64,000 nucleotides of DNA. Source: a virus. Below, piece after piece: positions 20,321 to 44,044 of this stretch (positions within the stretch are counted from its first letter, which is position 1; each line of letters starts with the position of its first letter). The notes under the pieces are model-generated. The model worked only from the letters and a program-made list of their open reading frames with translations. It did no database searches and was not told the origin of the DNA. Location of the stretch: positions 32,001 to 96,000 of the IMG/VR virus record IMGVR_UViG_3300029309_000001. One strand, given 5' to 3'. Made by a program: the position numbers and the translations under genes.

Positions 20321-23300
20321 TTACCACCATCCTCCATTCCTTCTTTCTGCTAGTGCTGCTCTTAATTCACTACCATATTTAGCTTCAGTACCACAATTAG
20401 TACCTATCTCATCAGCCTTTGGAGTTACTCCATCAGGACAACAGCCATATTGTGTACTTCCACAACCTCCTGTTATTTCATCTGGTTTATTATTATTATT
20501 TACATTTCTATTATTATTTACATTTCTATTATCAACATTTATATTATTTCCTTGATAACCAGGAATGGTTTGGTTACCTTTAGGTTGATTTTGAGATTTA
20601 AACATATCATTAACAACTAAACGTGCATTATTCATACAAGCAATTCTTTCTGCTTCAGTACTTATATTACCACATCTTTGTTCAATATATTGATTTTCTA
20701 AAGCTATTCTTTTATCCATTTGTGATTGTGGATCTACTACATTATTTGCAAAGAAATCTTTAGGGTTTGTAATTTGTATATCTCCACCAAAACCTGGACG
20801 TACATTATAATTAGGAGTCATAGTATTTAAATTATAAGTATTAGATCTATTAGTTTCAGCATTAGCACGTGCATCTGCTATTTGTATTCTAAGTTGATTT
20901 TTAGCATTATCATAATTTTGATCTACCGTATTAACTTCATCCATATACTTTTTTAATGCATCTTGATTTAATACATCTACATTTGATGCTACTCCTGCAT
21001 TAAATTGTTGAGCTTGATTATAAATATCTACATTATCATTTTGAACTTTATCTAATGCTCCTGCTATTTGTTGACCTGCTGTTCCTTGTATTTTAGAAAG
21101 TACAGATGCTAATCCTTGACCACTAGTCATTTGCATAGCCATATCTCCAGCAATTTGAGCTTGTTCTGCTATTGCAGCAATTTCTCTTGTAGGATCTTTA
21201 TAAGCTGGATCCATAAAGTTACCTGTAAAAGATTGTCTACTTGGATAATATTTATTAAGATCTACATCAGATAATGCATCTAACTTCATTATATCTTGTT
21301 TCCAATATTCATTTGGTATAGGATCTGGCATTTTAAATTCTCCTTTTTCTATACATTGACAAACATCAGTATCATATCTACCACCTTTTGTTTCACAATC
21401 TACTTTAGCTTTTGCTTGATCAGGTTTTACTTGACCGTTTGCATCAAGATAACATGTTTCAACATTTCTTACTTTCTTTTCTCCTGGTGTATTATTTAAT
21501 TGCATTATTTGACTATTAAATGTATCACCATATTTACCATCTAAAGCAGACCATCTATCTTCTCCCATTAAACCTGATCCACCTTTATCACTTCCAAAAG
21601 CTTCTAAATTAACATTACCTAATAAATTTGACCAACTATCATCTCCATCAGCAGACATTTTTTCAGCATGTTTTTTTAATCCACCTAAACTACTAAATGT
21701 AGCTTGTTTATTTAACACCATATTCATAAGTTCATCTTTATCTGTAGGTAATGGTTCAAAGCCAGCATCAGGATATTTTTTCATTATTTCTTCATAGACT
21801 AATCTATACATACCATTAGGATCTCCATCGCTAAAACCTCCACCTCTTCTTGGCCTATCCCATGCATCATGTTGTTTAATATCATTACCAGTTACTGTTT
21901 GACCATTAGGTAAAGTAATTGTTATACCATCTAATGCTCCTGCTTCATGCATTAAATACTTAAACTTTTGATCAAGCATAAACATTTCTTCATATTCTTC
22001 TTGAGTCATTTCAGGTATTGCTTGAAGATTAGAATATTTATCACGTGCTTTTAAATAAGATTCATATCCAAATTTATTTACTTTGTCCCAATCTTCAGAA
22101 TTATATAAATCTAACATTTGATTATATCTATCCATACCATAAATTTTTTCTCCTCCTTCATCAAATGTTTGTAACTCTTCATAATCTACATATCTATTTT
22201 CAAAATCTTCTCCTCCATATAAAAATTCATTTAATTTATTATTATATAAACCTGCAGGAATCATATTACGTGAATCTGGTGAAGCTGCATTATATAATCC
22301 AGCAGCTACCATACCACCTTTTTGTGCATAGTCTGCTTGCGCATCTTCTTTATATCTTCCATCATACATAGGATCAGGTTTACCTTGTGATTTTTTAACT
22401 AATTGTTCTGCCAATGTAACTAATGATCCTTGATTAATTCCTTTGTTTATATCATTACCATAACTTATTTTTGGATACTTACTTGTAAAATCTTGTTGAT
22501 TAAAAGGTACCATATCTGATACTTCTTGTAATCTATCTGAAGGTAATTTTGAATTTACTTGCATACTTTCAGGAGATTCAAATTGAGCTTTATGCAATCC
22601 TCCACCAAGTTTAAAACCAGGTCCATATAGACTAGGAGTAACTGTTTGTCTATATATCATAGGAGGTGGGGGATTAAATTCACCTGTTGATGGATTATAA
22701 TTAACACCAAATAATTTATTATCAATAGGAGGTTGATACATACTATCTCTATTAATCACTCTTATTTGATTTGCTTCATTTAATGCTTGTTTAGTATCTT
22801 CTATTTCTTTTTGATAAGCATTTAACATACCAGCAACTTCTCCTCTATTTTGAGCTTTAGGTAATGATCCACCATACATTGCCATCATTTGTTGTGGTGC
22901 CATCATACCTTGTGGTGGCATTCCTCCTCCTTGTGGTGGAGCTTGTGGCATAGGTGGCATTCCTCCTGCCATAGGTGGTCCTTGTGATGGAGGACCTCCT
23001 TGGCCACCTGTAAAGTTTTGTAATGATAATATTTGTTTTTGTTCTTCAGGTGGTAACTGATCTATCATTTGCATCATAGCTTGTTCTTCATTAAGTTTAT
23101 TTACTTTTTGAACAAACTGCATTGGATCTATTTTTTTAGACATTAAAAATGGATAAGCTGCTAAAGGCACACCATCTTCAAATTTCTTTTTACTTTCTGA
23201 TACAAATGCTAATTCAGATAATTTCATTTTATTTTTTTCTAACATTAACTCTGCACTTCTTGTAGTTATATCATCTACAAATTCATCATTTAAAGCTGAA

Positions 23301-23692
23301 TAGTATTTGTTTAATGGAAATTTTTTAGATACAGCAGCAGGAGTCATTTTCTTTTTAGAATTAATATTAAATCTAGTAAGCTGATCTTTATTAAGTTTCA
23401 TTTTAGCAGTATCTGAAAAAATAAATGATTGAGGAGGTAAACTTAATGCAGTTCCACCTTGTGGATGTCTTTTACCACCAATGTTATACAGCTCAAAGTT
23501 ACCATCATTAGTTAAATCAGTTAATGCTGTCTCACCTTTTTCTGCTTCTAAATTAGCAAAGGATCTTGGTATAGGTCCTAATGAATTACCATAAGGTGCT
23601 CCACCTGTAGCCATAACTTTTACAATTTTACCATTTTTAAATTTATATCCGTTTGGTAAATTTCCTATTTTTACTTTTACTTTTTTTCCCAT
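20321..23692 (-). CDS. Virion cargo protein (crAss cargo-1-like N-terminus) with GG motifs, Q/M/P-rich linker and C-terminal Cys-rich module
   Basis: 1123 aa. N-terminal ANLEAEKGET...GGKRHPQGGT...FIFSD resembles crAss-like cargo proteins. Contains MYGGSLPKAQ, KLGGGLHKAQ and C-terminal CGSTQYGCCPDGVTPKA. Confidence 0.6.
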   Translation of the reverse strand: MGKKVKVKIGNLPNGYKFKNGKIVKVMATGGAPYGNSLGPIPRSFANLEAEKGETALTDLTNDGNFELYNIGGKRHPQGGTALSLPPQSFIFSDTAKMKLNKDQLTRFNINSKKKMTPAAVSKKFPLNKYYSALNDEFVDDITTRSAELMLEKNKMKLSELAFVSESKKKFEDGVPLAAYPFLMSKKIDPMQFVQKVNKLNEEQAMMQMIDQLPPEEQKQILSLQNFTGGQGGPPSQGPPMAGGMPPMPQAPPQGGGMPPQGMMAPQQMMAMYGGSLPKAQNRGEVAGMLNAYQKEIEDTKQALNEANQIRVINRDSMYQPPIDNKLFGVNYNPSTGEFNPPPPMIYRQTVTPSLYGPGFKLGGGLHKAQFESPESMQVNSKLPSDRLQEVSDMVPFNQQDFTSKYPKISYGNDINKGINQGSLVTLAEQLVKKSQGKPDPMYDGRYKEDAQADYAQKGGMVAAGLYNAASPDSRNMIPAGLYNNKLNEFLYGGEDFENRYVDYEELQTFDEGGEKIYGMDRYNQMLDLYNSEDWDKVNKFGYESYLKARDKYSNLQAIPEMTQEEYEEMFMLDQKFKYLMHEAGALDGITITLPNGQTVTGNDIKQHDAWDRPRRGGGFSDGDPNGMYRLVYEEIMKKYPDAGFEPLPTDKDELMNMVLNKQATFSSLGGLKKHAEKMSADGDDSWSNLLGNVNLEAFGSDKGGSGLMGEDRWSALDGKYGDTFNSQIMQLNNTPGEKKVRNVETCYLDANGQVKPDQAKAKVDCETKGGRYDTDVCQCIEKGEFKMPDPIPNEYWKQDIMKLDALSDVDLNKYYPSRQSFTGNFMDPAYKDPTREIAAIAEQAQIAGDMAMQMTSGQGLASVLSKIQGTAGQQIAGALDKVQNDNVDIYNQAQQFNAGVASNVDVLNQDALKKYMDEVNTVDQNYDNAKNQLRIQIADARANAETNRSNTYNLNTMTPNYNVRPGFGGDIQITNPKDFFANNVVDPQSQMDKRIALENQYIEQRCGNISTEAERIACMNNARLVVNDMFKSQNQPKGNQTIPGYQGNNINVDNRNVNNNRNVNNNNKPDEITGGCGSTQYGCCPDGVTPKADEIGTNCGTEAKYGSELRAALAERRNGGWW
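22880..23010 (-). repeat. Low-complexity G/P/Q/M coding repeat
   Basis: Encodes GGQGGPPSQGPPMAGGMPPMPQAPPQGGGMPPQGMMAPQQMM, with repeated ggtggcat/tgtggtgg units in the DNA. Confidence 0.7.
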
Positions 23693-23694
23693 AA

Positions 23695-26600
23695 TTATAT
23701 AATTTCTATGTCTGCTCCTGCAGCTAATAATTCATAATACATATCTGTATCAATACTTACTGTTTTTTCTTTTTGTTCACCACCATCTTTAAAGAAGAAT
23801 CCTAAACCTCCTGAATACTCCCAATTACTTGTTGAAGGATTATAAGTAACACCTGCATTTAATAATCCATATCTTGCTTCTGCTCCTATTTTTAATCCGT
23901 CATTGCTTTTATAATCTGCAAATAAATCTAATTGACCTTGAGGAACATAATCATGTTTATCTTTATACATAAATCCAAGACCAGATTTATAAATTGTTTG
24001 AGGAACTGGTGTTTTAAATTGTAAACCTGCTCTTCCACCATAATAAGGACTAACCATTTCTTGATCATTAAAGTCAATACCACCATATCCTTCTAGCATT
24101 ATACCAGCAGGTCCTGAAGTAGGTAACCCATAAAAATCTTGATCAAGTCTTAATCTAGCTCCTATGTCACCTTTAGCTGTCAGTTTAGTAAAAGGATTTC
24201 CTTCATTATCCATTTCTGTAGTTTCAAAAGGGCTAAAGTTAGTATAAACACCTCTTTTAAATCTACCACCTCCTGCATCTCTGCAACTACCACCCCAACA
24301 ATTTACCATATCTGCTCCAAAAAATAAATTTAACGGATGCTCACCACTTTGATATTCAACACCAAATCTTGGATTTGTTAATCTTGTTCCTCTAAAACCA
24401 TATTGAGCATTAGGTAATTCACTACCATATTGACTAAAACCATCTTGTCTTGAAATTACTTTACTATCTGTAAACATAAGTCCTGTGTTTTCATCTTCTT
24501 CTCCTCTAGATAATGTATCAGCTGCCATTACATTGTATGCATCATCTGAAGATCTAGTAGCTAAATTATAAGCTTGTTCTTTTCCTTCATTTATTTGATC
24601 AAATATTTTATTACCAATACCTGCTGCTTCTTTTAAAAACTTTGCACCTTTTTCAAAACCTTGAACTACTTTACTATCTCTAACATAGTTAAGTTTATTT
24701 CTCATTCTTTCTCCAAAAGTATCACCCCATCTATCTCTTCTGTCTTGTCTTCTTTGTTTTCTTAAAGCTTTTTCTTCTTCTTTTGCTGCTTGCATATCTT
24801 CATAAGATTCAAAACCTGCTTCTATAGCTTTATCTTCTCTTCTTTTATCTCTACGTACACCTCTAAGTTGTCTTCTACTTAAAGTATTACCATCTCCTTC
24901 AAATGCAAAATCATCAGTAACATCAAACTCTGGTGTAACATTTGCTTGATCAACAAACATATCTTGTTCTGTATTAAATACATCACCATAGGATCTATTG
25001 ATAGAACCTTCTTTTGGTTTAAATGTATTCATATCTATATCTCTTCTTCTAACATCATATGTATTAGCTGCAGATTTTTTCATTCCTTGATTAACTGCAT
25101 TAGCTGTAAACATATCACCTACATTACGGTTTATTGTACCAGTCTCATCTGAAAATGCATCACCTACTACATTAAATTGATCTGAATCAGGAGTGTTAAA
25201 TCCTTGATTTTCTTCTGTTGCATCTACCCATTGACCTCCTTGCCATACATCACCATATGAACTAATAGCTCCTTCTTTAGGCATACCAGCTTCATAATCA
25301 AATTGTTCTGGATTTACCATATACATTGCTGCTGCATCTTGTGCACCATTTTGTGCTTTATATAATGATCCACCAGTTTGTTTAAAATTACTAAATGCAT
25401 TATAATTTATACTAGGTGTAGTGGTTAATCTTTGTGGTGCATATAATGGATTTACAATTGCACTTGAAAAATCTTTATTTCTATAGTTTTTTAACATATC
25501 TAATTGTGTTGTTTGTTTGCTAAAAGGATTAACATTAAATAATGGTGTTTTAAAATTATCTGCTTGATTTAAACGAGTATTAATTAAATTAACACCTTTT
25601 TGATTTAATGCAGGAAAAGTTTTATTAAGTGTTTTTAATTGATTAAAGTTTTTAGGTAATACATTAACAAGACCTGTGTTACCTACACCACTTAACTCAA
25701 GAGCACCAAGTGCTAAATTACCAAAACCTTCACCAGTTCTACCTTCAGAAAAATCTGTATAAGCTTCAGGTAATGTATTTCTTAAAGCTTCTTGTGACCA
25801 ATATGCATTATTTAATTGACCAAATGTTACTGGTGCTCCTATAGTTGAACTACCTGGTACAGTTACACGTGCAAGTTTATTTGCAAGACCAAGACCTCCT
25901 CTAACTACACCTACACCACCAACTAAAGCAGGAATGTAACCCATTAAACTATTCATTTCATAATCAACTGGACCTTGATCAACAAACATTGGGTTTAATA
26001 AATTTTCGTTATCACCTATACTTAAAAACTCATTGCCTGTATTATAACCTATAGTAGGTCCACCATAACCTCCTTTTGATCCTTTAAAATATGGATTAAG
26101 ACTAGTTAAAACTGCATCTTCATAATTGTCTGGTGTTATTGTTTGATAATCTGATTTATAATTAGCTACAATTTGATTCCTAAAATCTTCATAAGACATA
26201 GGTTCTCCTTCTTTAAGAACTCCATCATTTTGATTTAATATAGGTTTAGCTTTTACAATAGTTCCACCACTTAAATCACTATTATTAATTCTTTTAATAT
26301 TACCATCTGCTGTCCATTGTTCTCCTGAAGCTAAGTTAGGATAATTTACACCAGGTGTACCAATTTGAGGTTTATAATCTCTTACTAATTCTTCATAGTC
26401 TTTAGCTATTATATTTTCATATAATGAAGATCTATTAGCATCATAAAAAGTATTTTCTAAATTTAAATTATTTTCATCACCCATTTCAGCATCTTTTCCA
26501 AAATTATATATGCTAGTTAAAGGTTCTCCATTTACAGTAAGTTTGCTTACATCTTGTAAATTTAAATTATATTGATTAGCAAAATTTATAACATCTTTTA

Positions 26601-28767
26601 AGTTAGAAAAATTTCCTGTTCTTACTTCTTTTTGTTCTACAGTTTCATTTCTATATGGATATACTTGTCCTTCATTATCAACAGTCCAAAATACATTTGG
26701 TGTTGTTTCATACTGTAAAAATGGATCTCTTGATAAATTCCATTCTTGTGCTTGTTTATTTAAATTATATAATTGTGTTCTTCCTTCTCTTGTTGAAGGG
26801 TTAGGAAAATTTGGAAAGTCTCTTATAATGTTTGAATAAAGATTAAATTCATCAGCTTGTGGCCATGTAGATTTATCTTTAATATTTATACTTCCAGCTC
26901 TATAATTAGAATTTCTAGCATCTCCATATCCTGCTCCAAGAGCAAGTAAATCTTCTTGCATTTTTAACCACAATTCTAATTGTTGATCTGTCCAATCAGG
27001 AATTTCACTTTTATTTTGAAAATGCATTAGATCACCACCATCACGTAAAAATGAAAAAGTAGGGATAGAACCACCGTATTTTAAATCAGGATCAAATTCC
27101 ATATCATCAAGATTAGCATCTTCAGGTACACTTTCATTATTTTTTTCTTGTGATGTAGGTTCATTACATTTACAATTTGCTGCATCCCAATCTCCAGGTG
27201 GTGTTAGCTGTGCACATTTTTCCTGTAACTCAAAACAATCATTTGCAGTTTGTTGAGAACTTTTTTCATAAGTTATGTTAGTAGGATTTTCTGCATCAAA
27301 AGGAATATACTTATATTTTTTTTGTCCTCTTTCATCAACACCATCAAATACATAAGAACCTTGTATGCCTGTATTATCTTCATTATGAACAAGCATAACA
27401 GCATCAGGTACATATTCTGTTTCAATCATATCACCTAATAGCTTATCTCCTTGATAAGTTATATTACCATCCATATCCATACTAGATATTTGATATAAAT
27501 CAGGATACGCAGCAGTTCTATTGTTAACATATTGATTATACTCATTCATTCTTTTCTCTTCGTATGTTATGAGTTTATCTGGTTGTGTTGGATCAAAGAA
27601 TCTAGTTTCATCAAATGGATTTGTTATTTTAAATTGTTGATAATTTTCTTTACCCCATCTATTATTACCTGCACTTGGAAATGCAAGCTTTGCCATTTGA
27701 TTTATTTCTTTTTTAGAGGCATCAGGATTTTGTTCTCTTAAAACCTTTTTAAAATTTCTAAATTCTTTTTTAGTTATTTTATTTGGATCAACATCAAAGT
27801 TTTGAAAATCTTTAATTCCACTTTGAAATAAATTTACTATATCACTTAATATGTTAGTATCTTCTCCTGCATTATACATCATAAAAGGTTTAGTATCTAC
27901 TTTATTAGATCTATCACGTCTTCTTTTACCACGTTTAGTTTGCCAATCTGCAAATTTATTTAATATTTGATTTTCTTGATTATTTTTTGCATCAAATATA
28001 TCTGTATTATTATCTAATCCTTCACATACTCCTGTTAAAGAATTATAATTTCCACCTTTTGCAGCACACTCATCTGCTTTTGCAACCTCTGACTCAACTT
28101 CATTTATTATATCTTCTTCACTTTTATTGTTATCTTCAGCTCCTGGATAATTAGTTTCTGCATCTTCCATTCCTTCAACATCATCATTATCTCCATCATC
28201 TTGGAATTTTTTTAAAGATCCTCCATATTCAAATGTAGGCATTTGTTGTTGAGGTATTATAGCTTGTTGAGGTTGCATAGATTGTTCTGGTGCTTGTTGT
28301 TGCATAACCATTTCTTCTTGTGGTGCAACAGCTGGTTCATTTAAACCAGGCATTTGTAAACCTTCTTGTATTTGTTCTACAGTTTCTTTTGATTCTTCAT
28401 AATCAGAAACACTTTGATTTTGTTTACTATAAGAACTGTCATTATTTTTTAATGGTCCCCCTTTTTCATAACTATCACAAACATTTTGTTCAGTGCATTT
28501 AAAATCATTACTCCAGCAATATCCAATATTACCTGACTTATCATTTATACACTTTTTCATTCTATTTGATATGTCAAAAAATATACAAATACCACATTTA
28601 TCTTCTGAACTTGCTTTACCATAATTAAATCTAGAAATAGCTCTTTCTCTATTATCTAAATTTAAATCTTGATCAATAGTAGCATCAGGACATGGCGTAA
28701 CTTGTTGAGTATCACCACCTTCTTGATAAACTTCTAAAGTTTGTATGTTAGGGTATTTTTTTGCCAT
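23695..28767 (-). CDS. Modular virion cargo protein: N-terminal Cys cluster, GG-delimited modules, C-terminal beta-barrel-like module
   Basis: 1690 aa. Motifs YQEGG, EYGGSLKKFQ, KYGGSI, RDGGDL, QTGGSLYKAQ, QYGSELPNAQ and FKDGG. The last module has alternating beta-strands ending YSGGLGFFF. Confidence 0.6.
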   Translation of the reverse strand: MAKKYPNIQTLEVYQEGGDTQQVTPCPDATIDQDLNLDNRERAISRFNYGKASSEDKCGICIFFDISNRMKKCINDKSGNIGYCWSNDFKCTEQNVCDSYEKGGPLKNNDSSYSKQNQSVSDYEESKETVEQIQEGLQMPGLNEPAVAPQEEMVMQQQAPEQSMQPQQAIIPQQQMPTFEYGGSLKKFQDDGDNDDVEGMEDAETNYPGAEDNNKSEEDIINEVESEVAKADECAAKGGNYNSLTGVCEGLDNNTDIFDAKNNQENQILNKFADWQTKRGKRRRDRSNKVDTKPFMMYNAGEDTNILSDIVNLFQSGIKDFQNFDVDPNKITKKEFRNFKKVLREQNPDASKKEINQMAKLAFPSAGNNRWGKENYQQFKITNPFDETRFFDPTQPDKLITYEEKRMNEYNQYVNNRTAAYPDLYQISSMDMDGNITYQGDKLLGDMIETEYVPDAVMLVHNEDNTGIQGSYVFDGVDERGQKKYKYIPFDAENPTNITYEKSSQQTANDCFELQEKCAQLTPPGDWDAANCKCNEPTSQEKNNESVPEDANLDDMEFDPDLKYGGSIPTFSFLRDGGDLMHFQNKSEIPDWTDQQLELWLKMQEDLLALGAGYGDARNSNYRAGSINIKDKSTWPQADEFNLYSNIIRDFPNFPNPSTREGRTQLYNLNKQAQEWNLSRDPFLQYETTPNVFWTVDNEGQVYPYRNETVEQKEVRTGNFSNLKDVINFANQYNLNLQDVSKLTVNGEPLTSIYNFGKDAEMGDENNLNLENTFYDANRSSLYENIIAKDYEELVRDYKPQIGTPGVNYPNLASGEQWTADGNIKRINNSDLSGGTIVKAKPILNQNDGVLKEGEPMSYEDFRNQIVANYKSDYQTITPDNYEDAVLTSLNPYFKGSKGGYGGPTIGYNTGNEFLSIGDNENLLNPMFVDQGPVDYEMNSLMGYIPALVGGVGVVRGGLGLANKLARVTVPGSSTIGAPVTFGQLNNAYWSQEALRNTLPEAYTDFSEGRTGEGFGNLALGALELSGVGNTGLVNVLPKNFNQLKTLNKTFPALNQKGVNLINTRLNQADNFKTPLFNVNPFSKQTTQLDMLKNYRNKDFSSAIVNPLYAPQRLTTTPSINYNAFSNFKQTGGSLYKAQNGAQDAAAMYMVNPEQFDYEAGMPKEGAISSYGDVWQGGQWVDATEENQGFNTPDSDQFNVVGDAFSDETGTINRNVGDMFTANAVNQGMKKSAANTYDVRRRDIDMNTFKPKEGSINRSYGDVFNTEQDMFVDQANVTPEFDVTDDFAFEGDGNTLSRRQLRGVRRDKRREDKAIEAGFESYEDMQAAKEEEKALRKQRRQDRRDRWGDTFGERMRNKLNYVRDSKVVQGFEKGAKFLKEAAGIGNKIFDQINEGKEQAYNLATRSSDDAYNVMAADTLSRGEEDENTGLMFTDSKVISRQDGFSQYGSELPNAQYGFRGTRLTNPRFGVEYQSGEHPLNLFFGADMVNCWGGSCRDAGGGRFKRGVYTNFSPFETTEMDNEGNPFTKLTAKGDIGARLRLDQDFYGLPTSGPAGIMLEGYGGIDFNDQEMVSPYYGGRAGLQFKTPVPQTIYKSGLGFMYKDKHDYVPQGQLDLFADYKSNDGLKIGAEARYGLLNAGVTYNPSTSNWEYSGGLGFFFKDGGEQKEKTVSIDTDMYYELLAAGADIEII

Positions 28768-28803
28768 TTACTTAATTAATTAATTATAAGCAGTATACAT
28801 TTA

Positions 28804-28815
28804 TAATATACTAAA
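28804..28815 (-). promoter_or_regulatory. Phage promoter-like motif (variant TTTAGTATATTA)
   Basis: Intergenic. Minus strand TTTAGTATATTATAAATGTATA has one mismatch to the repeated TTTTGTATATTA motif. Confidence 0.55.
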
Positions 28816-28846
28816 TAATTAGCACATTTTCTAATTATATTACTGC

Positions 28847-31800
28847 TTATATCATACCTAAAGACTTTAAATGTTTAGTTCCTGCAGGTGTAAGTTTATC
28901 TCCATTTTCATATTTTTTAATAAGTCTATCTGTTACTTTATCAACTTCACCTCCCATTTGCTTTTTAGTTATTCCTTCATTAAATTTTTCTATATATTCT
29001 TGAGGAGTTTTATTAGCTTGTCCTGCATTAACTCCATATTTATCTGGAAATACAGATTCTAAACTATTACCATCTCTAAGTACATAACCTAAATATTCAC
29101 GTGTTCCTTGTCTTCCTAAAAAGTTTACTAATGCTGCAACTTCTGTTGTAGTATATGGAAAACTAGGTATTTGTTTGCTATAAATTTTATATAAATCTAT
29201 ACCACTTTCTCTTAGACCTTTTACACCTTCTAACTTACCTCTATATCTATTTTCAAAATATTTATTCTGTGCTTCTATATCATTAGCAAAATCTTGTCTA
29301 CTTCCATCATACATTGTAGAAATTTCACTAAACCTTTGTCCATATAAACCTGTAGCAGTTGATTCTGGATTAATCATTAGTTCACCATTAAGACTTTCTG
29401 CATAAGCAACTCCTTGTTTTAATTTTTCAAAATCAACCCAATTTGCATCTAATTCACTTGGTGGTATTAATTCTTTAGTATCTGGATGATAATATATTCT
29501 TCCATATATATCAAATGGTTTTCCTACAATACTTTCTCCTTCAATATTAAAACCTAAACCTGTTGGTATATCAAAATCATATTCATCATAATAAGCATAA
29601 TAAGGAAGCTCTCTTTCATCATCCATACCTCTTGATATTTGATAATTACTAAGATTAAAACCTCCTGCTGCAGAATCATTTATTTGCCATTTATCTTTTG
29701 ATGCATCTTTTGTAATACCCCTTTCTATTATGTCATCCATAATATCATCAACATTATTAAAAGAATAATAAACAGACTTATCATCTTCTACTCCTAATGT
29801 AGGTTTAAATTTAGATTTAGAAACTGTATTATGTTTTTGATCAAAACCTAAATACATACCCCATAAATCTTCTGAAGCATTTTTAATATATTCTCCAGCA
29901 TTAGGATTATCTTTAAATCTAGGATGATTTTGAAAATCATCAAATGATGTTTCTACACCATCCCACATAAAAGGTTGTTTTTCTCCATAAAGCATTTCTA
30001 CCATTGCTTGATCCATATTATAACCTATAGGTGTTACAGATTTATATAATCTATTTGCTAACCATCCAGGATTATTTTGACCTTGCATTTGAAACTTAGG
30101 TAATCTTTTATTATATTTATCTTTTATTGATCCACCTGTCTTTTTTTCTTCTAAATTATTTAACTCTAAACCTTCTAACGTAGCTGCTGTTATAGGTACA
30201 CCAGTTAACATTTTATTTAAAAGATTTGCAATAAGTTTATTATTTTGTTTAGTATCTTTTGTTTGATCTAATATTCTCATAACATATCCATCATAATCTG
30301 TACCAGGTAGTAATTTAGCATTATCAGCACGTACCTTAGAAATTAAATCTCCTGTTATATTATCATAAGCATCTGATATATATTTATTATCTAATAGATA
30401 TTGTTGTAACTCTGCAACATGAGCAGTAGGCTCTATATACAAAGTTCCTGGTGATTCAAAAGATGGTGAATTAGTTTTTTTTGGAGTAACTGTTTTTATT
30501 GGTTCGGTCATATAATCTTGAGTTTCTTTATTTCTTACTCCAAAACCTTTATCTGCATTACCCCATAGTGAATAACCATCATCAATTAACATTTGATTTT
30601 TTAATAATGCAGATGATGTAAGACCACCATCATCAACAAATTTTAAATTTGGTGAAAACCAATTAGTATTTGCAGCTCCTAATCTTTGATCAAATATTTT
30701 TGTTGCATCATCTGTTATAGGTATAGTAGTAGATCCAAAACCAAAAACATTTTTTTCAGTATTGCCAGAATTTCTTATTAATTTTCCTACATAGTCCAGT
30801 GCATGTTGATCTTCATGTCTAAAAATATTTCTTAACCAATTTTCTGGCAATGCATTTGTATTCATACTTACAAAAGGTAATATACCTTTTTCTAATTGAT
30901 TATAGTTTTCACCTGAAAAGAAATACGGACTATCATCTGGACCATATGAATTAAAATTATTTATAATAGGTATTTGTTTATATGTTGCAATAAATTTATC
31001 TACATCTGTATCACTTGCATTTGGACCTAAATAATTTTCTTTTATTCTTCTACGTCCTTCTGTAGTATTCATTCTTTCAAGAATATCATTTCTTATATTT
31101 AAATAAGATGTATTTCCTGTTAAACTTTTAGACATATCTTTAACGTCCATTGAATGACTACCTGCACCTAATACTGGTTTACCCATTTGAAGTGTACTTA
31201 TATATTCAGGATTATATATAAGACTTTTTAAATCTAATGGTTGAACCATAGAAAAATCTTCAAATAAACTTGTTGTTGGTGTTCCTACCTCTCCTGTTCC
31301 ATAAAGATCTTCAAATGCATTATAATTAACATTTCCCCTAGCTTCTCTACCTATTGCTTCATTATGTATTCTTATTAAATCATCATCTAGATCATCTTTA
31401 AAAAATGCTAAATCTTTTTTACTTTGATCAACTATATCTGTAAAAGTATTACCTGTTAAACCATGATAATTTTGAAAGTATCCTGGTTGTGCATTATAAT
31501 AATCTTTTCCAACATTTGATATATTTTTTGATGTGCCACCTAACCAAGTTGGTAAATAACTACGAAGATAATCTTTTGTATCTTTTACTGTTTGTATTGT
31601 TTTTTTTATTTTTGCAGGATTAAACAAATCTTTATATTGTGCTTTTGGTAATGAACCACCAAGTTTATATAAATCTTTTCCTTTAATAGGTATTATTCCT
31701 GGAGATTCTATATCTAAATTATATTTAGATAAATAACTATCAGGCACTTTAACTCTTATATATTGATTTCCTTTTTGATCAGTAATAATTTCATAAGGAT

Positions 31801-34800
31801 AATCTTTTCCAAAAACTTTATTAATATCTTTTTTAAGTTGTTTTTCAGTATTTTTATTTAATATACTTTGATACCTTTTTGGATAAGCAGATGGATTACT
31901 AATAGCAGTTACATCATCAGGATTATATCCTTGATTTGTTAAAAAATTATTTCTAATTTCTTCTATTTTATTTTTTTGTTCTTGAAAACCTCCTGAAATT
32001 TCTATTGTGTTACCATCTGGTTGTTTATAAGTAACAATCATTTTTTTAGGATTAGTTTTATCAAAAGTAAAAGGTCCTAAAGTTTCTTTACCTACAGCAT
32101 CTGATTTAATTAAATTACCAAGTGTTTGATCTACTTCACTAAGAAAATCATTCCAACTATGACCAGTCCAATTATATTCTGTATATAAAGGATTGGGTGC
32201 TCCAAATTTATCTGCAGTATATCCTTGAGTTTTTGCAACTGTTGAAGATAATGGTAAATGTAAATAATCTTTACCACTTTTTGCTGAATAATCTGCAAGT
32301 TCAGATAATAATATTTGTTGAGGATTTTTTCTAAATTCTTTTAAATTTAATTCTACTTCAGATGGATTATTTAATTCATCTAATTCTTTTTTATTTTGTT
32401 CCTTTATTTCTTTATTTTGTTTTTTACTTTTATTTATTAAATTTTCTTCATATTTTATTTTTGAGTCAACAAATGATTTAAATGCAGGATGTTGTGCTAT
32501 TTCTAATTGTAATTCTTTTGATATATTAGGTGCATTTACATTACTTCTCATAATTGAATTAAACTCTTCATTATTAAAAAAGTTATGATTAGATATATCT
32601 ACAGATGTTTGATAATCTTTATCTGATACATTTGGACCACGGTATTCTGCATTTGCACGTATTGAAGGTGATGATCGTATAAAGTCACGTATTGTTCCTA
32701 TTAAGTGTTGATTTGTCCAATGCATGCCATCTTCTGTTTCTAACATAGCATCTATAAAATGATAAGCTTCTTCAGGATTTGTATCTACATCTTTGATATA
32801 ATTTAAAACATAATTATAATTTTCTATTTTTCTTAAATGTCCGTCATAATTTACTGGATTTTCTTTACTTAAATAATCTTTTCGGTTTTGAAGATTTTTA
32901 TTATATTTTTGAGCATAATCAGATTGTTTTTCTACTGAAATAGTTGCATCAGGAAACTCATCACTAAAGGCAACTCTATTATGTCCTAATACAAGTTTAT
33001 CTGTTAAATTTTTTCCAAAATGTGCAGAACCTGTAGTTTTACTATAATCAGTTACACCTGCATCATCTATAGTTGTTAATAAAAGATTTCCTCTTGCAGA
33101 ATTGTCACCTTTAAAAATATTAGATTCATCTCCTTGCCAATAAGTTGTAAAGTTAGAAGTAGGAGATTGTAATGATGTATACATTGTTGGAAATAATAAT
33201 GTAGGATTTAATGATTGTTGAACTTCATCTGCAAATGCATTATAATTAATTGCACCTCTACCTCTATTATTTTGCATCATTGTTTCATAAACTCCTAACA
33301 TTTTTCCTCTGTCATATCTTTCTTGAGGAGATAAACCTTTAATTTTTTGAAGATATTGTAAAAATAAATTATTGTTTATATCCCCTTTATTATCTATTAT
33401 TTTAGTAAGTTCACTATCATTTATAATTGTAGGTAATTGAATATTAGAAGATTGAAGTGGAATTTGCTGGCTTGCTATATAATCTTGCCAATTTGCATAA
33501 GGCCAATTTTGTCTTAACACTGTATTAAATTGTCCCATTGATCCTGTTGGTTTATTAGTAAATAATGATGGGTTTCTTGTTGATCTATAATTTAAATTAA
33601 GTGTATTTTTAGATGGTGAAAAAAAACTTTTAACACCTTGATATAAAGTTTTATACTTTGGATCAAATGGATTATACCATTGAGCTTTTGGTAACTGACC
33701 ACCGTCTCTAGACATAAAATTAGATTGTCCAAAATCATCTACTATTTCAAAAGGATTATCAGTCCCTTGAGGAGTTTGTTGTGCAACATTATCCATAAGC
33801 CATATAATATCTTCATCTGAAAAGTTTTTAAATAATCTATTATAACCATGCTTTTCTTTCATCTTTTTTAAATCCTCTTCTGTAAATTTTTTATAATCCC
33901 CTGAACTATCATATATACCTGATTTATCTGCTTGGTATCTAAATTCTATTAAATCAGATCTAACTTCTGATGGATCTGCATTATGAAATCCTGGTGTTGT
34001 ACTATAATTTCTATCTAACCACCGTTTAATTTCATTAGGGTTTTCTGTCATGTATTGTTGTTCATCTTCTGATAATTGATTCCATACATTTTGAAATGCT
34101 TTATTTCTTTTATTTATTTTAGCTTGTAAATTTTGATCTCCTACAAAAAATCCACCTTCAGTATGTCCTAATTCATGAGCCATAATATCTTTCTGTTGTT
34201 CCTCAGTAAAAGGACCAATATAATTATTTATTGGATCTATAGTAATTGAACTTCTAGTTTTAGTAGAATATCCCTTCTTATGTTTATGTTGTCCAAGTGA
34301 TCCAGTAAACTTTTCTTCTATAGAAGGTCCTAGAATAATTGGCTCATCTAATGGTTCAAGCCATATAGAATCTTCATGCTGCATTCTATAAGGATAATCA
34401 TCTATATATTGTAGACCTTGTTTTGTTCCTGATTTAAAAAAACGATTAGTCCAGCCTGGTTTATCAGAATTATCAATTATTTTGTTTTTTAAATGATCAA
34501 AAGTATTACCTTTTAAATATGACCCATACCAATCTACTACAGGTTGATATTTATTTGCTATTGCCATCTCTTCATCAGTAAGTGTATTTGGTAATACTTC
34601 TCCAGTAGATTGATAATTAGGTATATTAAATTGTTCAGCTATTGAATTTTCAATTGAGTCAGCTTGATTAGCTAAAATTAACGCTTTACTAAATTCATCA
34701 AATTCTGGTGAGTTAAGTAACACTCCTTCTTTAGGAGGTTTTTTACCAAGTAATATTTCATATACTTGTATGTCATCTTTATTCATTTCTAGTATATCTG

Positions 34801-35527
34801 GTATATTAGAAAAATGTGTGCCACTTAAAGTAGAACCTCTACCAGTTTCTAATGGTGTAAACATGTTTACTAAAGGAAGGAATTTTGAAAGAGTTTTTCC
34901 TAAAAGTGGTTTTATAGCTTGCAATGCAGTTCTTATACCTAATTGATCAGTATTATCTTCAGAATCTTCTCCCCCATGTTTTTTCTTTTTTAAATTTGGA
35001 GTTTTATAACCTCCTTTAGCAAAAGCATCAGCTTCTTCTTCAGAATTAAAATAATAAACCTCTCCTCTTTCTAACGCCATTTTAAAAGCATCTTGTTCTT
35101 GACCTTTTTGAAACTCTGTCCATGATGTAGGATCTGGAGTTTCTTGTCCTTCTACAGTAGGATATAACATTGGTATAACCATATAAATAGGACTACCATC
35201 ATCATCTGTCATTTCAATAGTAGTCATAAGATGTGTAGATACATTTCCCATTTGTTTATTATAATTAGGAAGTAATTTATTATCTCTTTCTGTTCTTCTT
35301 TGTTTTACTTTATTTGTTGGTTTGTCTTGAACAGGTTGTTCAAATACCATGTTACCTGGAAACTTATAATTAAAACCAGGTTGCATTAATTGTTGATTAC
35401 CAAAATTATCTGTACCCATAACTGGAAAGTCTACACCTTTCATAGTTATATCTCCAGATGGTATAATATTATAAGGATTATTTACATCCTTACTATTTCT
35501 TTTATATCCGTCTTTACTTAATTTCAT
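28847..35527 (-). CDS. Polyvalent virion protein: two zincin metallopeptidase-like domains, a polyvalent-protein-type domain and a C-terminal lysozyme/lytic-transglycosylase-like domain
   Basis: 2226 aa. MAHELGH (34163-34177) with downstream EVRSDL; RHEDQH (30803-30817) with EPTAH; HF...GHNR...VEKQSD; AYAESLNG...STATGLYGQ (catalytic-Glu/SLT-like motif, ~29340-29405). The start overlaps the upstream stop (TAATG). Confidence 0.7.
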   Translation of the reverse strand: MKLSKDGYKRNSKDVNNPYNIIPSGDITMKGVDFPVMGTDNFGNQQLMQPGFNYKFPGNMVFEQPVQDKPTNKVKQRRTERDNKLLPNYNKQMGNVSTHLMTTIEMTDDDGSPIYMVIPMLYPTVEGQETPDPTSWTEFQKGQEQDAFKMALERGEVYYFNSEEEADAFAKGGYKTPNLKKKKHGGEDSEDNTDQLGIRTALQAIKPLLGKTLSKFLPLVNMFTPLETGRGSTLSGTHFSNIPDILEMNKDDIQVYEILLGKKPPKEGVLLNSPEFDEFSKALILANQADSIENSIAEQFNIPNYQSTGEVLPNTLTDEEMAIANKYQPVVDWYGSYLKGNTFDHLKNKIIDNSDKPGWTNRFFKSGTKQGLQYIDDYPYRMQHEDSIWLEPLDEPIILGPSIEEKFTGSLGQHKHKKGYSTKTRSSITIDPINNYIGPFTEEQQKDIMAHELGHTEGGFFVGDQNLQAKINKRNKAFQNVWNQLSEDEQQYMTENPNEIKRWLDRNYSTTPGFHNADPSEVRSDLIEFRYQADKSGIYDSSGDYKKFTEEDLKKMKEKHGYNRLFKNFSDEDIIWLMDNVAQQTPQGTDNPFEIVDDFGQSNFMSRDGGQLPKAQWYNPFDPKYKTLYQGVKSFFSPSKNTLNLNYRSTRNPSLFTNKPTGSMGQFNTVLRQNWPYANWQDYIASQQIPLQSSNIQLPTIINDSELTKIIDNKGDINNNLFLQYLQKIKGLSPQERYDRGKMLGVYETMMQNNRGRGAINYNAFADEVQQSLNPTLLFPTMYTSLQSPTSNFTTYWQGDESNIFKGDNSARGNLLLTTIDDAGVTDYSKTTGSAHFGKNLTDKLVLGHNRVAFSDEFPDATISVEKQSDYAQKYNKNLQNRKDYLSKENPVNYDGHLRKIENYNYVLNYIKDVDTNPEEAYHFIDAMLETEDGMHWTNQHLIGTIRDFIRSSPSIRANAEYRGPNVSDKDYQTSVDISNHNFFNNEEFNSIMRSNVNAPNISKELQLEIAQHPAFKSFVDSKIKYEENLINKSKKQNKEIKEQNKKELDELNNPSEVELNLKEFRKNPQQILLSELADYSAKSGKDYLHLPLSSTVAKTQGYTADKFGAPNPLYTEYNWTGHSWNDFLSEVDQTLGNLIKSDAVGKETLGPFTFDKTNPKKMIVTYKQPDGNTIEISGGFQEQKNKIEEIRNNFLTNQGYNPDDVTAISNPSAYPKRYQSILNKNTEKQLKKDINKVFGKDYPYEIITDQKGNQYIRVKVPDSYLSKYNLDIESPGIIPIKGKDLYKLGGSLPKAQYKDLFNPAKIKKTIQTVKDTKDYLRSYLPTWLGGTSKNISNVGKDYYNAQPGYFQNYHGLTGNTFTDIVDQSKKDLAFFKDDLDDDLIRIHNEAIGREARGNVNYNAFEDLYGTGEVGTPTTSLFEDFSMVQPLDLKSLIYNPEYISTLQMGKPVLGAGSHSMDVKDMSKSLTGNTSYLNIRNDILERMNTTEGRRRIKENYLGPNASDTDVDKFIATYKQIPIINNFNSYGPDDSPYFFSGENYNQLEKGILPFVSMNTNALPENWLRNIFRHEDQHALDYVGKLIRNSGNTEKNVFGFGSTTIPITDDATKIFDQRLGAANTNWFSPNLKFVDDGGLTSSALLKNQMLIDDGYSLWGNADKGFGVRNKETQDYMTEPIKTVTPKKTNSPSFESPGTLYIEPTAHVAELQQYLLDNKYISDAYDNITGDLISKVRADNAKLLPGTDYDGYVMRILDQTKDTKQNNKLIANLLNKMLTGVPITAATLEGLELNNLEEKKTGGSIKDKYNKRLPKFQMQGQNNPGWLANRLYKSVTPIGYNMDQAMVEMLYGEKQPFMWDGVETSFDDFQNHPRFKDNPNAGEYIKNASEDLWGMYLGFDQKHNTVSKSKFKPTLGVEDDKSVYYSFNNVDDIMDDIIERGITKDASKDKWQINDSAAGGFNLSNYQISRGMDDERELPYYAYYDEYDFDIPTGLGFNIEGESIVGKPFDIYGRIYYHPDTKELIPPSELDANWVDFEKLKQGVAYAESLNGELMINPESTATGLYGQRFSEISTMYDGSRQDFANDIEAQNKYFENRYRGKLEGVKGLRESGIDLYKIYSKQIPSFPYTTTEVAALVNFLGRQGTREYLGYVLRDGNSLESVFPDKYGVNAGQANKTPQEYIEKFNEGITKKQMGGEVDKVTDRLIKKYENGDKLTPAGTKHLKSLGMI

Positions 35528-43124: not shown

Positions 43125-44042
43125 TTATACTCTTCTTCTTGGTGCATGACTTGCAAACATATCATAATAATTATGATATTGTGCTTTTCTATTTACTTCC
43201 CAAATTTTTCTTACTTCTTCAAAATTTGGTGTATTTACAAAGCCAAGAGCATTATTTCTTGCAGCTCTTAATTTAACTTGAATTAATCCAAGTTGTTGTG
43301 CAACATTTTCTCCTTGGAAAATCATGTTTTCTAATATTCTTTCTTTTAGTGCATATTCATAATATTCATTACAATAAGGATGATCTAATACTAATAGTTC
43401 ACCATCATTATTTTCTAATATACCTTGATAACTTAAATATACTTTACCTGTTGTAAATGTTGTTAATAAATACCCATCTTGTATTTCTGCTAGATTATGA
43501 GATTGTGTATTTAAATTTGGACATTCACAACTTACATGAGATGTACTAGTTATACGTAAAGGAAAGAATGATGTATATTCTCTTACTGTAGATTCATTCA
43601 TTCTTTGAAGAACTATATATTCTCCACTAAATGTTGTAACACCTTTACCTCTATCTACTGGACATGTTTTAACAACACATACATTTTCACAATCTTCTGG
43701 TTTTGTACATACATGAGGTTGACTTGGATCTGGTGTCCACTTAGGTTGTGTTGTGTCAGTATGAGTTCCAGATGGTGCAGTATTTACTATTTGATATTCA
43801 CTACAAACAAATGCATAATTAAGAGTTTTAAAATCTGAAGGCATTTGTGCTTTATTATGTTCAACATCAATAATTGATTCTTTACTTTGATGTATTCTTA
43901 AACCTAAATCATAATTAACTCTTGTTGCTACTTTAATTAATTGTTGAGGTTCAATCATACCTTCAAGATCATATGTAGAAAAATCTACTTTAACATCTTC
44001 TAGCAATTGATCAAATGTTCTATATTTATGTGATATGGCCAT
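43125..44042 (-). CDS. Putative tail ring / head-tail adaptor protein
   Basis: 305 aa directly upstream of the muzzle. GKVYLSYQG...DGELLVLDHPYCNEYYEYAL resembles adaptor/ring proteins. Called mainly by synteny. Confidence 0.55.
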   Translation of the reverse strand: MAISHKYRTFDQLLEDVKVDFSTYDLEGMIEPQQLIKVATRVNYDLGLRIHQSKESIIDVEHNKAQMPSDFKTLNYAFVCSEYQIVNTAPSGTHTDTTQPKWTPDPSQPHVCTKPEDCENVCVVKTCPVDRGKGVTTFSGEYIVLQRMNESTVREYTSFFPLRITSTSHVSCECPNLNTQSHNLAEIQDGYLLTTFTTGKVYLSYQGILENNDGELLVLDHPYCNEYYEYALKERILENMIFQGENVAQQLGLIQVKLRAARNNALGFVNTPNFEEVRKIWEVNRKAQYHNYYDMFASHAPRRRV

Positions 44043-44044
44043 GT

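Follow-up and report, generated by a model that had tools for sequence, protein, structure and literature searches.

A recurrent junction peptide marks exchangeable modules in three cargo-position proteins of an uncultured marine phage clade

Introduction

Phages are known to inject proteins together with their DNA. For the polyvalent proteins, processing by embedded zincins has been proposed (Iyer, Burroughs, Anand, de Souza and Aravind 2017, PMC5512222). In the crassvirus ΦcrAss001, the cargo proteins C1 (gp45) and C2 (gp46) are stored in the head and tail, and their ejection in unfolded form has been proposed (Bayfield et al. 2023, PMC10172136); their genes stand in the order ring protein R1 (gp43), muzzle (gp44), C1, C2 and the polymerase proteins gp47, gp49 and gp50. 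Prohead proteases, namely T4 gp21, phiKZ gp175 and SPN3US gp245, process head or ejection proteins at a short motif, and the T4 propeptides also target proteins into the prohead (PMC10052503). Here we analysed a 64,000-nucleotide stretch of DNA, called the window below, which comprises bases 32001-96000 of the complete 119,026-bp virus record IMGVR_UViG_3300029309_000001. Three neighboring open reading frames (ORFs) of 2226, 1690 and 1123 amino acids (aa) in this window contain copies of one short peptide built around a Gly-Gly pair, which is the subject of this study.

The three ORFs lie downstream of the genes for the tail ring proteins R2 and R1, with a muzzle-like gene before them and a virion RNA polymerase gene after them. 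Because they stand between the muzzle-like gene and the polymerase as C1 and C2 do in ΦcrAss001, they occupy the crAss cargo-protein position, and this synteny suggests that they are packaged. In contrast to their genomic place, their sequences have no detectable relationship to C1 and C2, and ΦcrAss001 gp43-gp50 are much smaller, without payload modules and without the motif. Cutting has been proposed for polyvalent proteins, and no junction signal is known to have been defined for them; literature searches, including searches with motif strings, found no description of a junction peptide in the texts covered, the supplementary tables of PMC10172136 and PMC5512222 lying outside the search.

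Results

A junction peptide concentrated in three proteins

The peptide has the family consensus M-A-[RK]-Y-G-G-[ESGD]-L-P-K-[AFY]-Q-x-G-(G)-(E). Conservation by position is 96% for G0 and L3, 98% for A/F/Y6, 81% for Q7 and 76% for Pro at position 4, and the information content peaks at G0, L3, P4, A/F/Y6 and Q7, mostly after the GG pair. Each site is named by the length of its protein and the residue number of its first Gly (Table 1). The window holds eight full and two partial sites, together with several half or decayed ones, a few of the half-sites being terminal. A first-pass annotation of this DNA, made from the letters alone, had put the number at about 20, which was too high; all of the examples that it listed are nevertheless present on the (-) strand where it had placed them.

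Enrichment was evaluated in a 103-ORF call of the whole 119-kb genome (38,291 aa), in which the three ORFs amount to 5,039 aa and the rest to 33,252 aa. The strict pattern GG[SGQD][LI].K[AF]Q occurred six times in the three ORFs and nowhere else (mean 0.00 in 300 per-protein shuffles), the relaxed pattern G[GS][SGQDE][LI]..[AF]Q eight times versus none (about 0 in shuffles), and a gapped form nine times versus none. As these patterns were composed after the sites had been seen, two independent matrix tests were made. A 15-column matrix built from the eight sites of the window gave 154 matches versus 1 in shuffles when applied to 254 homologues of the 1123-aa protein, 116 of which had at least one match. 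A matrix trained on foreign homologues only recovered eight sites of at least 8 bits in the three ORFs and none in the other 33,252 aa; at a threshold of at least 6 bits the counts were 10 and 3, respectively.

The concentration of the extended form in the three proteins, eight copies versus none elsewhere in the genome proteome, is stronger than the first-pass annotation had claimed. The short form (F/Y/M/A/K)-[KQERA]-x-G-G, which it had used as a marker, proved only weakly enriched, with 14 copies in the three ORFs against a shuffle mean of 2.5 (maximum 9) and another 14 elsewhere against a mean of 9.2, and GG dipeptides were not enriched in the 2226-aa ORF (11 versus 11.6 expected). That the virion RNA polymerase, major capsid and tail genes lack the extended form held as well, although the polymerase label probably fits the 5018-aa ORF and not the 2528-aa ORF.

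Distribution among related viruses

An alignment-based scan of IMG/VR returned 447 stretches encoding relatives of the 1123-aa protein, whereas a related-locus search with the single 1690-aa protein had found no relative. Of these, 80 loci were kept, and 60 non-duplicate loci were retained after dropping loci whose matched gene was identical to another over its first 150 residues, or that lacked the EAE.GE[TS] string by which this gene was located. In the 60 loci, 106 of the 108 motif matches fell at gene positions -2 (30 matches), -1 (48) and 0 (28), which correspond to the 2226-, 1690- and 1123-aa ORFs of the window; one match was found at position -3 (34 ORFs), one at position +1 (58 ORFs) and none at position +2 (55 ORFs). 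By these counts the motif belongs to exactly the three cargo-position genes. In five of the 60 loci all three genes lack the motif, and 14 loci have a single copy.

A strict DNA pattern for Y-G-G-x-L-P-K-A-Q hit 61 stretches in 2.9 million viral contigs, mostly on contigs of 40-126 kb, and 38 of the 61 hold at least two motifs. In 596 billion bases of prokaryote genomes, scanned with the one strict pattern Y-G-G-x-L-P-K-A-Q-x-G, two stretches were found, both on phage-like contigs of this family in metagenome-assembled genomes (MAGs). These contigs (CBDHFF010000001.1, 120,283 bp, and JBLHPD010000256.1) encode the 1123-type N-terminal domain and three to five junction motifs at a guanine-cytosine content of 0.29-0.33; they are labelled as MAGs of Rickettsiales and Clostridium, and look like phage contigs of the clade binned into bacterial MAGs. 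ΦcrAss001 gp43-gp50 gave no match to the motif matrix above 12 bits, and neither did 15 large ORFs from Leptolyngbya phage Lbo-JY46.

The clade is large, uncultured and marine. The 1123-aa protein has 1,753 representative homologues (clusters at 50% identity), at least 447 related viral contigs were found, and the capsid gene, whose product is 76-95% identical in the 80 loci kept, is present on at least 599 contigs. Marine metagenomes are the source of the homologues, whose contigs measure about 95-123 kb. One contig, IMGVR_UViG_3300030098_004828 (245,646 bp), carries the cargo locus twice, at a distance of about 121 kb, which may mean that two related genomes, or a concatemer, were joined by the assembly.

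Module boundaries and cassette exchange

Homologues of the 2226- and 1690-aa ORFs are mosaics that have only blocks in common with them, for example 96% identity over 19% of the length. In the 2226-aa ORF, 20 of the 57 internal BLASTP alignment ends fell within 20 aa of a motif (random placement mean 3.1, P about 0.0004), and in the 1690-aa ORF 18 of 29 did so (random mean 3.4, P about 0.0002); these ends are internal in both partners and come from related homologues, so that they are not independent counts. The 1123-aa ORF showed no excess of alignment ends at its motifs (89 of 702, P = 0.23), the ends being scattered through its low-complexity linker. Two homologues (P0257 and P0258) match the 2226-aa ORF at 44% identity over residues 1-1307 or 1-1323 and at 96% from residue 1796, exactly the split motif site. 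Other clusters of alignment ends in this ORF lie near residues 185 and 2025, where homologues carry full motifs; nine ends fall in the 175-199 bin, at the decayed junction.

A MAFFT alignment of the 1690-aa ORF with 10 orthologues identified the tandem site 1690:565/577 as an empty cassette slot. Between the halves of this site, two orthologues (P0281 and P0283) carry an HExxH module of roughly 450-510 aa and two others (P0288 and P0289) a different module of roughly 280 aa, while in P0280 site 1448 is present twice, with roughly 200 aa inserted between the copies. The P0281/P0283 module is homologous to residues 1300-1795 of the window's own 2226-aa ORF (34-37% identity), with motifs flanking each, and therefore the same cassette occurs in different cargo genes. 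Homologues contain up to 6-8 motifs per protein with a median spacing of 333 aa between successive motifs (n=46), and the number of motifs grows with ORF length within each gene position (rho 0.42-0.53). The motif also varies by lineage, P0275 for example having GGWLDKFQ.

These comparisons of sequences confirm that the motif delimits exchangeable modules, since whole modules are inserted exactly between motif copies and gains and losses in relatives are bounded by it, as the first-pass annotation had anticipated. Its placement of the motifs at module boundaries is likewise borne out by alignment ends and insertions, but the domains that it named there (zincin 1 and 2, lysozyme, beta-barrel) had no Pfam, PHROG or PDB-sequence match. 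Pfam and PHROGs searches with the 2226-, 1690-, 1123- and 1105-aa ORFs returned no family, a PDB sequence search with the 2226-aa ORF, the one cargo ORF so searched, no match, and an ESM Atlas search with its residues 186-604 ('zincin 1') no usable match.

Many unrelated domains in a mosaic architecture, as described for polyvalent proteins, are present in this family. As to the signature domains of that class, the three ORFs of the window have no Pfam match and show only two HExxH strings, at residues 451 and 1571 of the 2226-aa ORF, whereas ART-PolyVal, SET, LysM and YkuD occur in homologues: SET in P0270 and P0266, LysM with YkuD in P0276, P0278 and P0270, and ART-PolyVal in P0268 at 28.5 bits, below the curated 31.2. 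The N-terminal residues 1-185 and the C-terminal residues from about 1796 to 2226 of the 2226-aa ORF are conserved and its middle modules are variable; a homologue of the module at 186-608 was found in one of the 80 related loci.

Conservation of the peptide rather than of its DNA

Among the ten window copies, positions with the same residue had identical codons at a frequency of 0.66 versus 0.61 expected from codon usage, and in 159 distinct instances from the 60 loci the codon homozygosity at conserved positions equalled background, the exceptions being Ser at position 2 (TCA favoured) and, slightly, Leu. Conservation of the motif at the DNA level was therefore rejected. The first-pass annotation had proposed that the DNA could seed module exchange; as a reason for the conservation this does not hold, since synonymous codons are as free as background, while short DNA identity may still help recombination.

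At the peptide level, the core was more conserved than its flanks among the 10 orthologues of the 1690-aa ORF, with identities of 0.70 versus 0.41 at site 182, 0.84 versus 0.56 at site 1132 and 0.74 versus 0.54 at a third site; the tandem site 565/577 was less distinct (core 0.48-0.56, flank 0.42-0.47). Each orthologous site keeps its own variant, such as GGSL-Y-KAQ at 1132 and G-[ST]-ELP-[RN]-AQ at 1448. As synonymous codons are free and each site keeps its variant, purifying selection acts on the peptide, and the copies are not homogenised.

An AlphaFold model of the 1123-aa protein (81 sequences) has two confident parts, at about 40-225 and 515-1035, and both motifs fall in a stretch with predicted local distance difference test (pLDDT) values below 50 (residues 229-289, 309-399, 401-424 and 436-513). 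Although low pLDDT does not by itself prove that a segment is disordered, the P/Q/M-rich composition is consistent with disorder; the upstream flank of the motif is enriched in P, Q and M. Two marks of a short linear motif were seen, a conserved island between less conserved flanks in the 1690-aa ORF and low-pLDDT surroundings in the 1123-aa protein. The model of residues 1-1190 of the 1690-aa protein (12 sequences) had a mean pLDDT of 37 and was uninformative.

Conserved protein ends

Each gene position has its own conserved termini, some of which resemble parts of the motif. Basic leaders of the Q.GG type were found at 36 of 54 N-termini at position -1 versus 0 of 58 at position +1, the leader of the 1690-aa ORF being among the half-sites listed in Table 1. 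The 1690-aa ORF has the conserved C-terminal tail ...GGE...YYELLAAGADIEII, and an [AL]GA.[IL] tail occurs in 59 of 59 ORFs at position -1 (in the window, 23698-23802 on the (-) strand, ending ...GGE...LIAAGADIEIL). Proteins at position 0 start with MAKIKINKLPEGF, with LP..[FYM] in 57 of 60, and those at position -2 often start ...RGLPGGPNE (26 of 38). Positions -2 and 0 also have conserved tails, ...YDKLNRVHYKDAKK.GM..PNYIMT and ...KKGKEIKKYAVPFYTGKMG, respectively, each different. By their sequences, the conserved C-terminal tails of positions -2, -1 and 0 look like dedicated docking tails.

Most full motifs are internal. Only 7 of the 106 lie within 60 aa of an N-terminus and none of the 106 within 60 aa of a C-terminus, from which it follows that the peptide precedes modules.

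The 1123-aa protein and its N-terminal domain

Three parts make up the 1123-aa protein: its N-terminal domain (about 35-225) is strongly conserved, a P/Q/M/G-rich and probably disordered linker follows, and the C-terminal region (515-1035) is helical. Over 52 sequences, the N-terminal domain (window 22997-23692 on the (-) strand, residues 1-232) has 28 invariant residues at an overall identity of only about 30%; E49, E51, E54, D59, R75, H76, S93 and D94 are among them, an enzyme-like pattern. This domain had no Pfam match and no PDB fold match, and in a Foldseek search of the PDB with the 1123-aa model no match had an E value below 0.88. An identity as crAss_CARG1, raised by an ESM Atlas feature match of 0.92 (5 of 30 matches for the N-terminal domain), was not borne out by profile tests: none of 52 family members matched crAss_CARG1 (PF25725) at E <= 0.01, and hhalign to ΦcrAss001 gp45 and gp46 gave probabilities below 1% (0.3% for gp45). 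A tblastn search of 50,697 phage records with the 1123-aa protein returned no match.

Genome setting and neighboring genes

The large genes of the window are all on the (-) strand, in the order R2, R1 and the 2528-, 2226-, 1690-, 1123-, 1105- and 5018-aa ORFs. R1 and R2 (43125..44719) constitute, by their Pfam matches, a crAss-type tail barrel. The 2528-aa ORF gave collinear but weak matches to the ΦcrAss001 muzzle gp44 (E = 0.009), which is half its size, and a PDB sequence search with it returned no match; its VWA domain lies at residues about 2000-2128 (Pfam 3.9e-8), and many Cys-rich stretches lie near its C-terminal third. The 5018-aa ORF matched ΦcrAss001 gp50 (BLASTP 2e-17; DFDxDKLY block, residues about 3581-3907) and gp47 (BLASTP 2e-8; HEAFH block, residues about 2121-2307), and because of these matches we assign it as the virion RNA polymerase, apparently a single-chain fusion of the crassvirus polymerase proteins. 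No DxDGD polymerase string was found in any ORF of at least 1000 aa.

Cultured phages are only distantly related by capsid protein, the nearest being Leptolyngbya phage Lbo-JY46 (27% identity), Cellulophaga phi4:1 and crAss-like phages. One ORF of the genome matches Por_Secre_tail, the C-terminal sorting domain of type IX secretion (9.2e-8), which points to a Bacteroidota host; other Pfam matches in the genome are PhoH, DnaB, ribonucleotide reductase, a spore-photoproduct-lyase-like protein and a P22-type portal. Between the portal-like and capsid genes lies the ORF of a 446-aa protein (61974-63314, (-)) that is acidic and probably helical, has a tail rich in Ser and basic, and is probably the scaffolding protein; neither it nor the 223-aa ORF in the same interval matched a Pfam family above cut-off.

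Table 1. Motif sites, predicted cargo-position proteins and neighboring features, in window coordinates
Feature	Position	Strand	Remarks
Site 2226:609, RDGGQLPKAQ, SRDGGQLPKAQW	33677..33712	(-)	30.2 bits with family matrix; alignment ends at 603, 609, 616, 617
Site 2226:1290, KLGGSLPKAQ, YKLGGSLPKAQY	31634..31669	(-)	Alignment ends at 1285-1323
Split site 2226:1798-1813, KTGGSI...RLPKFQ, EKKTGGSIKDKYNKRLPKFQMQ	30083..30148	(-)	Partial
Decayed junction of 2226-aa ORF, KKKKHGGEDSE, AFAKGGYKTPNLKKKKHGGEDSE	34958..35026	(-)	Homologues have full motif KKRDGGSLPKAQ at residues 182-188
Site 1690:182, EYGGSLKKFQ, FEYGGSLKKFQD	28198..28233	(-)	Preceded by Q/P/M-rich stretch
Tandem junction 1690:565/577, LKYGGSIPTFSFLRDGGDLMHFQN	27013..27084	(-)	Partial KYGGSIPTF (565) and full RDGGDLMHFQ (577)
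Site 1690:1132, QTGGSLYKAQ, KQTGGSLYKAQN	25348..25383	(-)	Full site
Site 1690:1448, QYGSELPNAQ, SQYGSELPNAQY	24400..24435	(-)	Full site
Site 1123:274, MYGGSLPKAQ, AMYGGSLPKAQN	22847..22882	(-)	Best match to family consensus, 43.2 bits; pLDDT about 31-38
Site 1123:363, KLGGGLHKAQ, FKLGGGLHKAQF	22580..22615	(-)	Inside segment 309-399, pLDDT below 50
N-terminal leader of 1690-aa ORF, MAKKYPNIQTLEVYQEGG...	28702..28767	(-)	Like second half of motif, L-x-K-aromatic-Q-x-G-G
C-terminal tail of 1123-aa ORF, TEAKYGSELRAALAERRNGGWW	20324..20389	(-)	Starts with first-half motif; helix 1108-1118 in model
2226-aa predicted cargo/polyvalent-type protein, gene position -2	28847..35527	(-)	ORF; mosaic homologues
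1690-aa predicted cargo protein, gene position -1	23695..28767	(-)	Four full and one partial motif sites
1123-aa predicted cargo protein, gene position 0	20321..23692	(-)	Two motif sites in linker
HELGH (HExxH), residue 451, module 186-608 of 2226-aa ORF	34163..34177	(-)	String only; no Pfam match, no usable ESM Atlas match for the module
HEDQH (HExxH), residue 1571, module 1300-1795 of 2226-aa ORF	30803..30817	(-)	Module family also in P0281, P0283
Tail ring protein R2	44045-44719	(-)	Pfam CrAss_Ring_2, 5e-17
Tail ring protein R1	43125-44042	(-)	Pfam CrAss_Ring_1, 4e-9
2528-aa muzzle-like virion protein, gene position -3	35527..43113	(-)	PHROG 'virion structural protein'; VWA domain; no motif
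5018-aa predicted virion RNA polymerase fusion, gp47-like and gp50-like	1879..16935	(-)	BLASTP to ΦcrAss001; no junction motif
HEAFH zincin string of 5018-aa ORF	10384-10398	(-)	Conserved; common to ΦcrAss001 gp47

Discussion

A putative processing site between payload modules

A clade-wide, sharply delimited junction peptide marks exchangeable modules in the three cargo-position proteins. Tentatively, and judging from sequence, we favor its reading as a processing site that separates payload modules. The three ORFs would then be virion-carried, ejected cargo of the polyvalent type, belonging to an uncultured marine phage whose tail is crAss-like, their ends conserved and their variable middle composed of domain-sized payload modules, each placed after hydrophobic-[RK]-Y-G-G-[ESGD]-L-P-K-[AFY]-Q-x-G in a flexible linker. 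The peptide would be read in trans by one conserved factor, most likely a protease, which would cut the junctions after GG or after Q, in the head or after ejection, so that the modules could then act separately; the same cut would take off the short basic N-terminal leaders that contain the second half of the motif. With its own motif copy, each cassette could be gained, lost or moved among the three genes while the other junctions would still be read. We infer all three steps, packaging (from synteny), reading in trans and cleavage of the motif. Neighboring modules of homologues differ in destination, LysM and YkuD acting at the cell wall and SET and ART-PolyVal inside the cell, which supports separation. 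Module separation was ranked above loading because the motif goes with accessory modules while the core proteins are independent of internal copies; the five loci without any motif, which have short cargo proteins, indicate that the core cargo proteins do not need an internal motif for being made or loaded.

The candidate proteases are the HEAFH of the 5018-aa protein, a DUF2201_N protein and the two HExxH modules of the 2226-aa ORF, none of which is tied to the motif. The HEAFH string is present in 15 of 55 ORFs at position +2, most of which end near that residue at the edge of the locus. The DUF2201_N protein (388 aa, genome positions 1428-2594 on the (+) strand, outside the window) is a putative metallopeptidase with an invariant HExxH and a VWA-like DUF2201 domain, and is 68-87% identical in the 80 related contigs kept. 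Among 25 of the 37 Pfam families matched by 59 other ORFs of the genome, DUF2201_N is the only protease.

Several observations weigh against a processing site. DUF2201_N occurs in all five complete motif-bearing relatives and also in a complete motif-less one (the other four motif-less records are 27-73% complete), so that no correlation supports it as a motif-specific protease; the 2226-type zincin modules, present in one and none of the 80 loci, were rejected as a universal reader, and ΦcrAss001 has the HEAFH string but no motif. A six-frame search of the 119-kb genome at E <= 1 found no clan CE protease of PF02902 (Ulp1/C48) or PF00770 (adenain/C5), from which divergent members may escape, and no S78 prohead protease (PF04586) was matched in the genome, S77 and S80 not having been searched for. 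The 11-12 conserved residues exceed what most phage maturation proteases need and look at least as much like a docking peptide, L3, A/F/Y6 and Q7 being spaced like one face of a helix with glycines flanking, while the residue after either candidate cut (position 2 or 8) is variable and the N-terminal second-half copies fit a tag as well as a propeptide. From the ΦcrAss001 structure paper the words protease, cleaved and proteolytic are absent (PMC10172136). The alignment ends come from related sequences, and one of the two AlphaFold models was usable. Taken together, a cleavage site remains a plausible reading of the motif.

Alternative readings

A possible though somewhat doubtful alternative is that the peptide is never cut and serves as a docking, loading or ejection tag that attaches to some conserved part of the virion, for example the portal, the lumen of the tail ring or muzzle, the scaffold or the inner face of the capsid. 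With its GG hinge, a capping residue (position 2 being S, D, E or G) and L-P-K-A-Q, whose L3, A/F/Y6 and Q7 would fit one face of a short helix between glycines, it would mark which end of a module leads when the module is loaded into the procapsid or threaded in order through the tail. A leading-end tag would be expected to show the bias of full motifs towards N-termini and away from C-termini, as well as the motif-like second halves at position -1 N-termini that position +1 lacks, and the capsid protein, so similar among the 80 loci, would offer a fixed receptor. In ΦcrAss001, short helical segments of C1 are bound to R1 and R2 in 12 copies and an unassigned 14-residue helix is bound at the muzzle in six copies (PMC10172136); this reading stays alive because that paper describes cargo segments bound in the tail and on the portal and leaves proteolysis unmentioned. 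Yet accessory modules, being covalently joined already, have no need of a separate tag, and core cargo does not depend on internal copies, given the loci with one motif or none. Moreover, AlphaFold placed neither motif on the folded parts of the 1123-aa protein (pLDDT 31-38), and ΦcrAss001 gp43-gp50 lack the motif. The 'G-S-L-x-K' likeness to encapsulin tags, which we take to be superficial, covers about five residues.

Both functions might be combined in a portable address that loads its module into the lumen of the capsid or tail and is then cut to free the module in the host. We consider this unlikely; if true, it would allow plug-and-play swapping of injected effectors in a widespread marine phage clade, and would be a phage counterpart of the encapsulin cargo-loading peptides and the T4 capsid-targeting sequence, reiterated inside polyproteins.

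It is rather improbable that the peptide is only a structural hinge and recombination joint, that is, a flexible spacer whose recurring coding sequence supplies short homology for swaps, with no specific reader. The motif-module-motif insertions and the conserved tandem 'scar' at 1690:565/577 are such as recombination between repeats leaves, a 42-nt stretch of motif DNA in one gene matches another gene at 81% identity, and the motif lies in a low-confidence, P/Q/M-rich linker. A passive spacer, however, should drift, whereas G0, L3 and A/F/Y6 are nearly invariant in proteins whose folded domains are about 30-45% identical. The unconstrained synonymous sites speak against selection for DNA homology, the site-specific variants kept across orthologues argue against frequent gene conversion, and intragenic direct repeats are a deletion hazard that would be lost without benefit.

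Very improbable is a mimic of a host signal, read after ejection by a protease, chaperone or envelope component of a Bacteroidota host: the Por_Secre_tail match points to such a host, no motif-specific phage protease or receptor could be named, and the head proteins of staphylococcal phage 80alpha, cut by the host Prp protease, provide a precedent, but the prokaryote scan with its one strict pattern saw no host protein with the motif.

Comparison with known systems

In sum, one short peptide predicts module starts in three proteins across a large uncultured marine clade. Module boundaries, and hence new effector domains, can be read directly from sequence, and the processing proposed for such proteins becomes directly testable. 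If the peptide were a loading and/or cutting tag, it would offer a route for putting proteins of choice into phage particles; if it were only a hinge, it would still illustrate clearly how cassettes are exchanged in nature at a conserved peptide joint.

The Gly-Gly pair at junctions of what may be virion polyproteins resembles the sites of clan CE proteases (the adenovirus protease, pS273R of African swine fever virus and Ulp1), the last two of which the first-pass annotation had named. In clan CE processing the specificity resides before the cut, with a hydrophobic residue at P4 and Gly-Gly at P2-P1, and adenain sites have a hydrophobic-x pattern before GG. Here, in contrast, the residues corresponding to the protease subsites are R or K at P4 (63%) and Y at P3 (64%), which fits neither the adenain nor the African swine fever virus sites, and most of the conservation follows GG, for which a simple Gly-Gly signal would not account; with this mismatch and the missing C48 and C5 families, the proposed signal type was not upheld.

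Substrates of prohead proteases are likewise internal head proteins with repeated short recognition sites, from which N-terminal propeptides of at least 20-24 residues are removed, and, in the part of the review considered here, their sites are about three residues long and end in Glu, with an identifiable S77/S80-type protease gene in the head module (PMC10052503). The present peptide differs in having 11-12 residues and no fixed Glu, and it stands between modules without being confined to N-terminal regions.

Encapsulin cargo-loading peptides and the T4 capsid-targeting sequence are by analogy similar, as short peptides for the cargo of HK97-fold shells; such tags stand at a terminus, in one or two copies, whereas the peptide described here is mostly internal and repeated 2-8 times.

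The polyvalent proteins are alike in being giant, multi-module and mosaic, in carrying effector domains, in adjoining virion genes and in their supposed delivery together with the DNA. No junction or cleavage motif is named for them, and the words 'linker' and 'glycine' are absent, in the part of that paper considered here (PMC5512222). Unlike them, the proteins of this locus have a defined 12-residue peptide at each module start, in three gene positions and within one phage clade.

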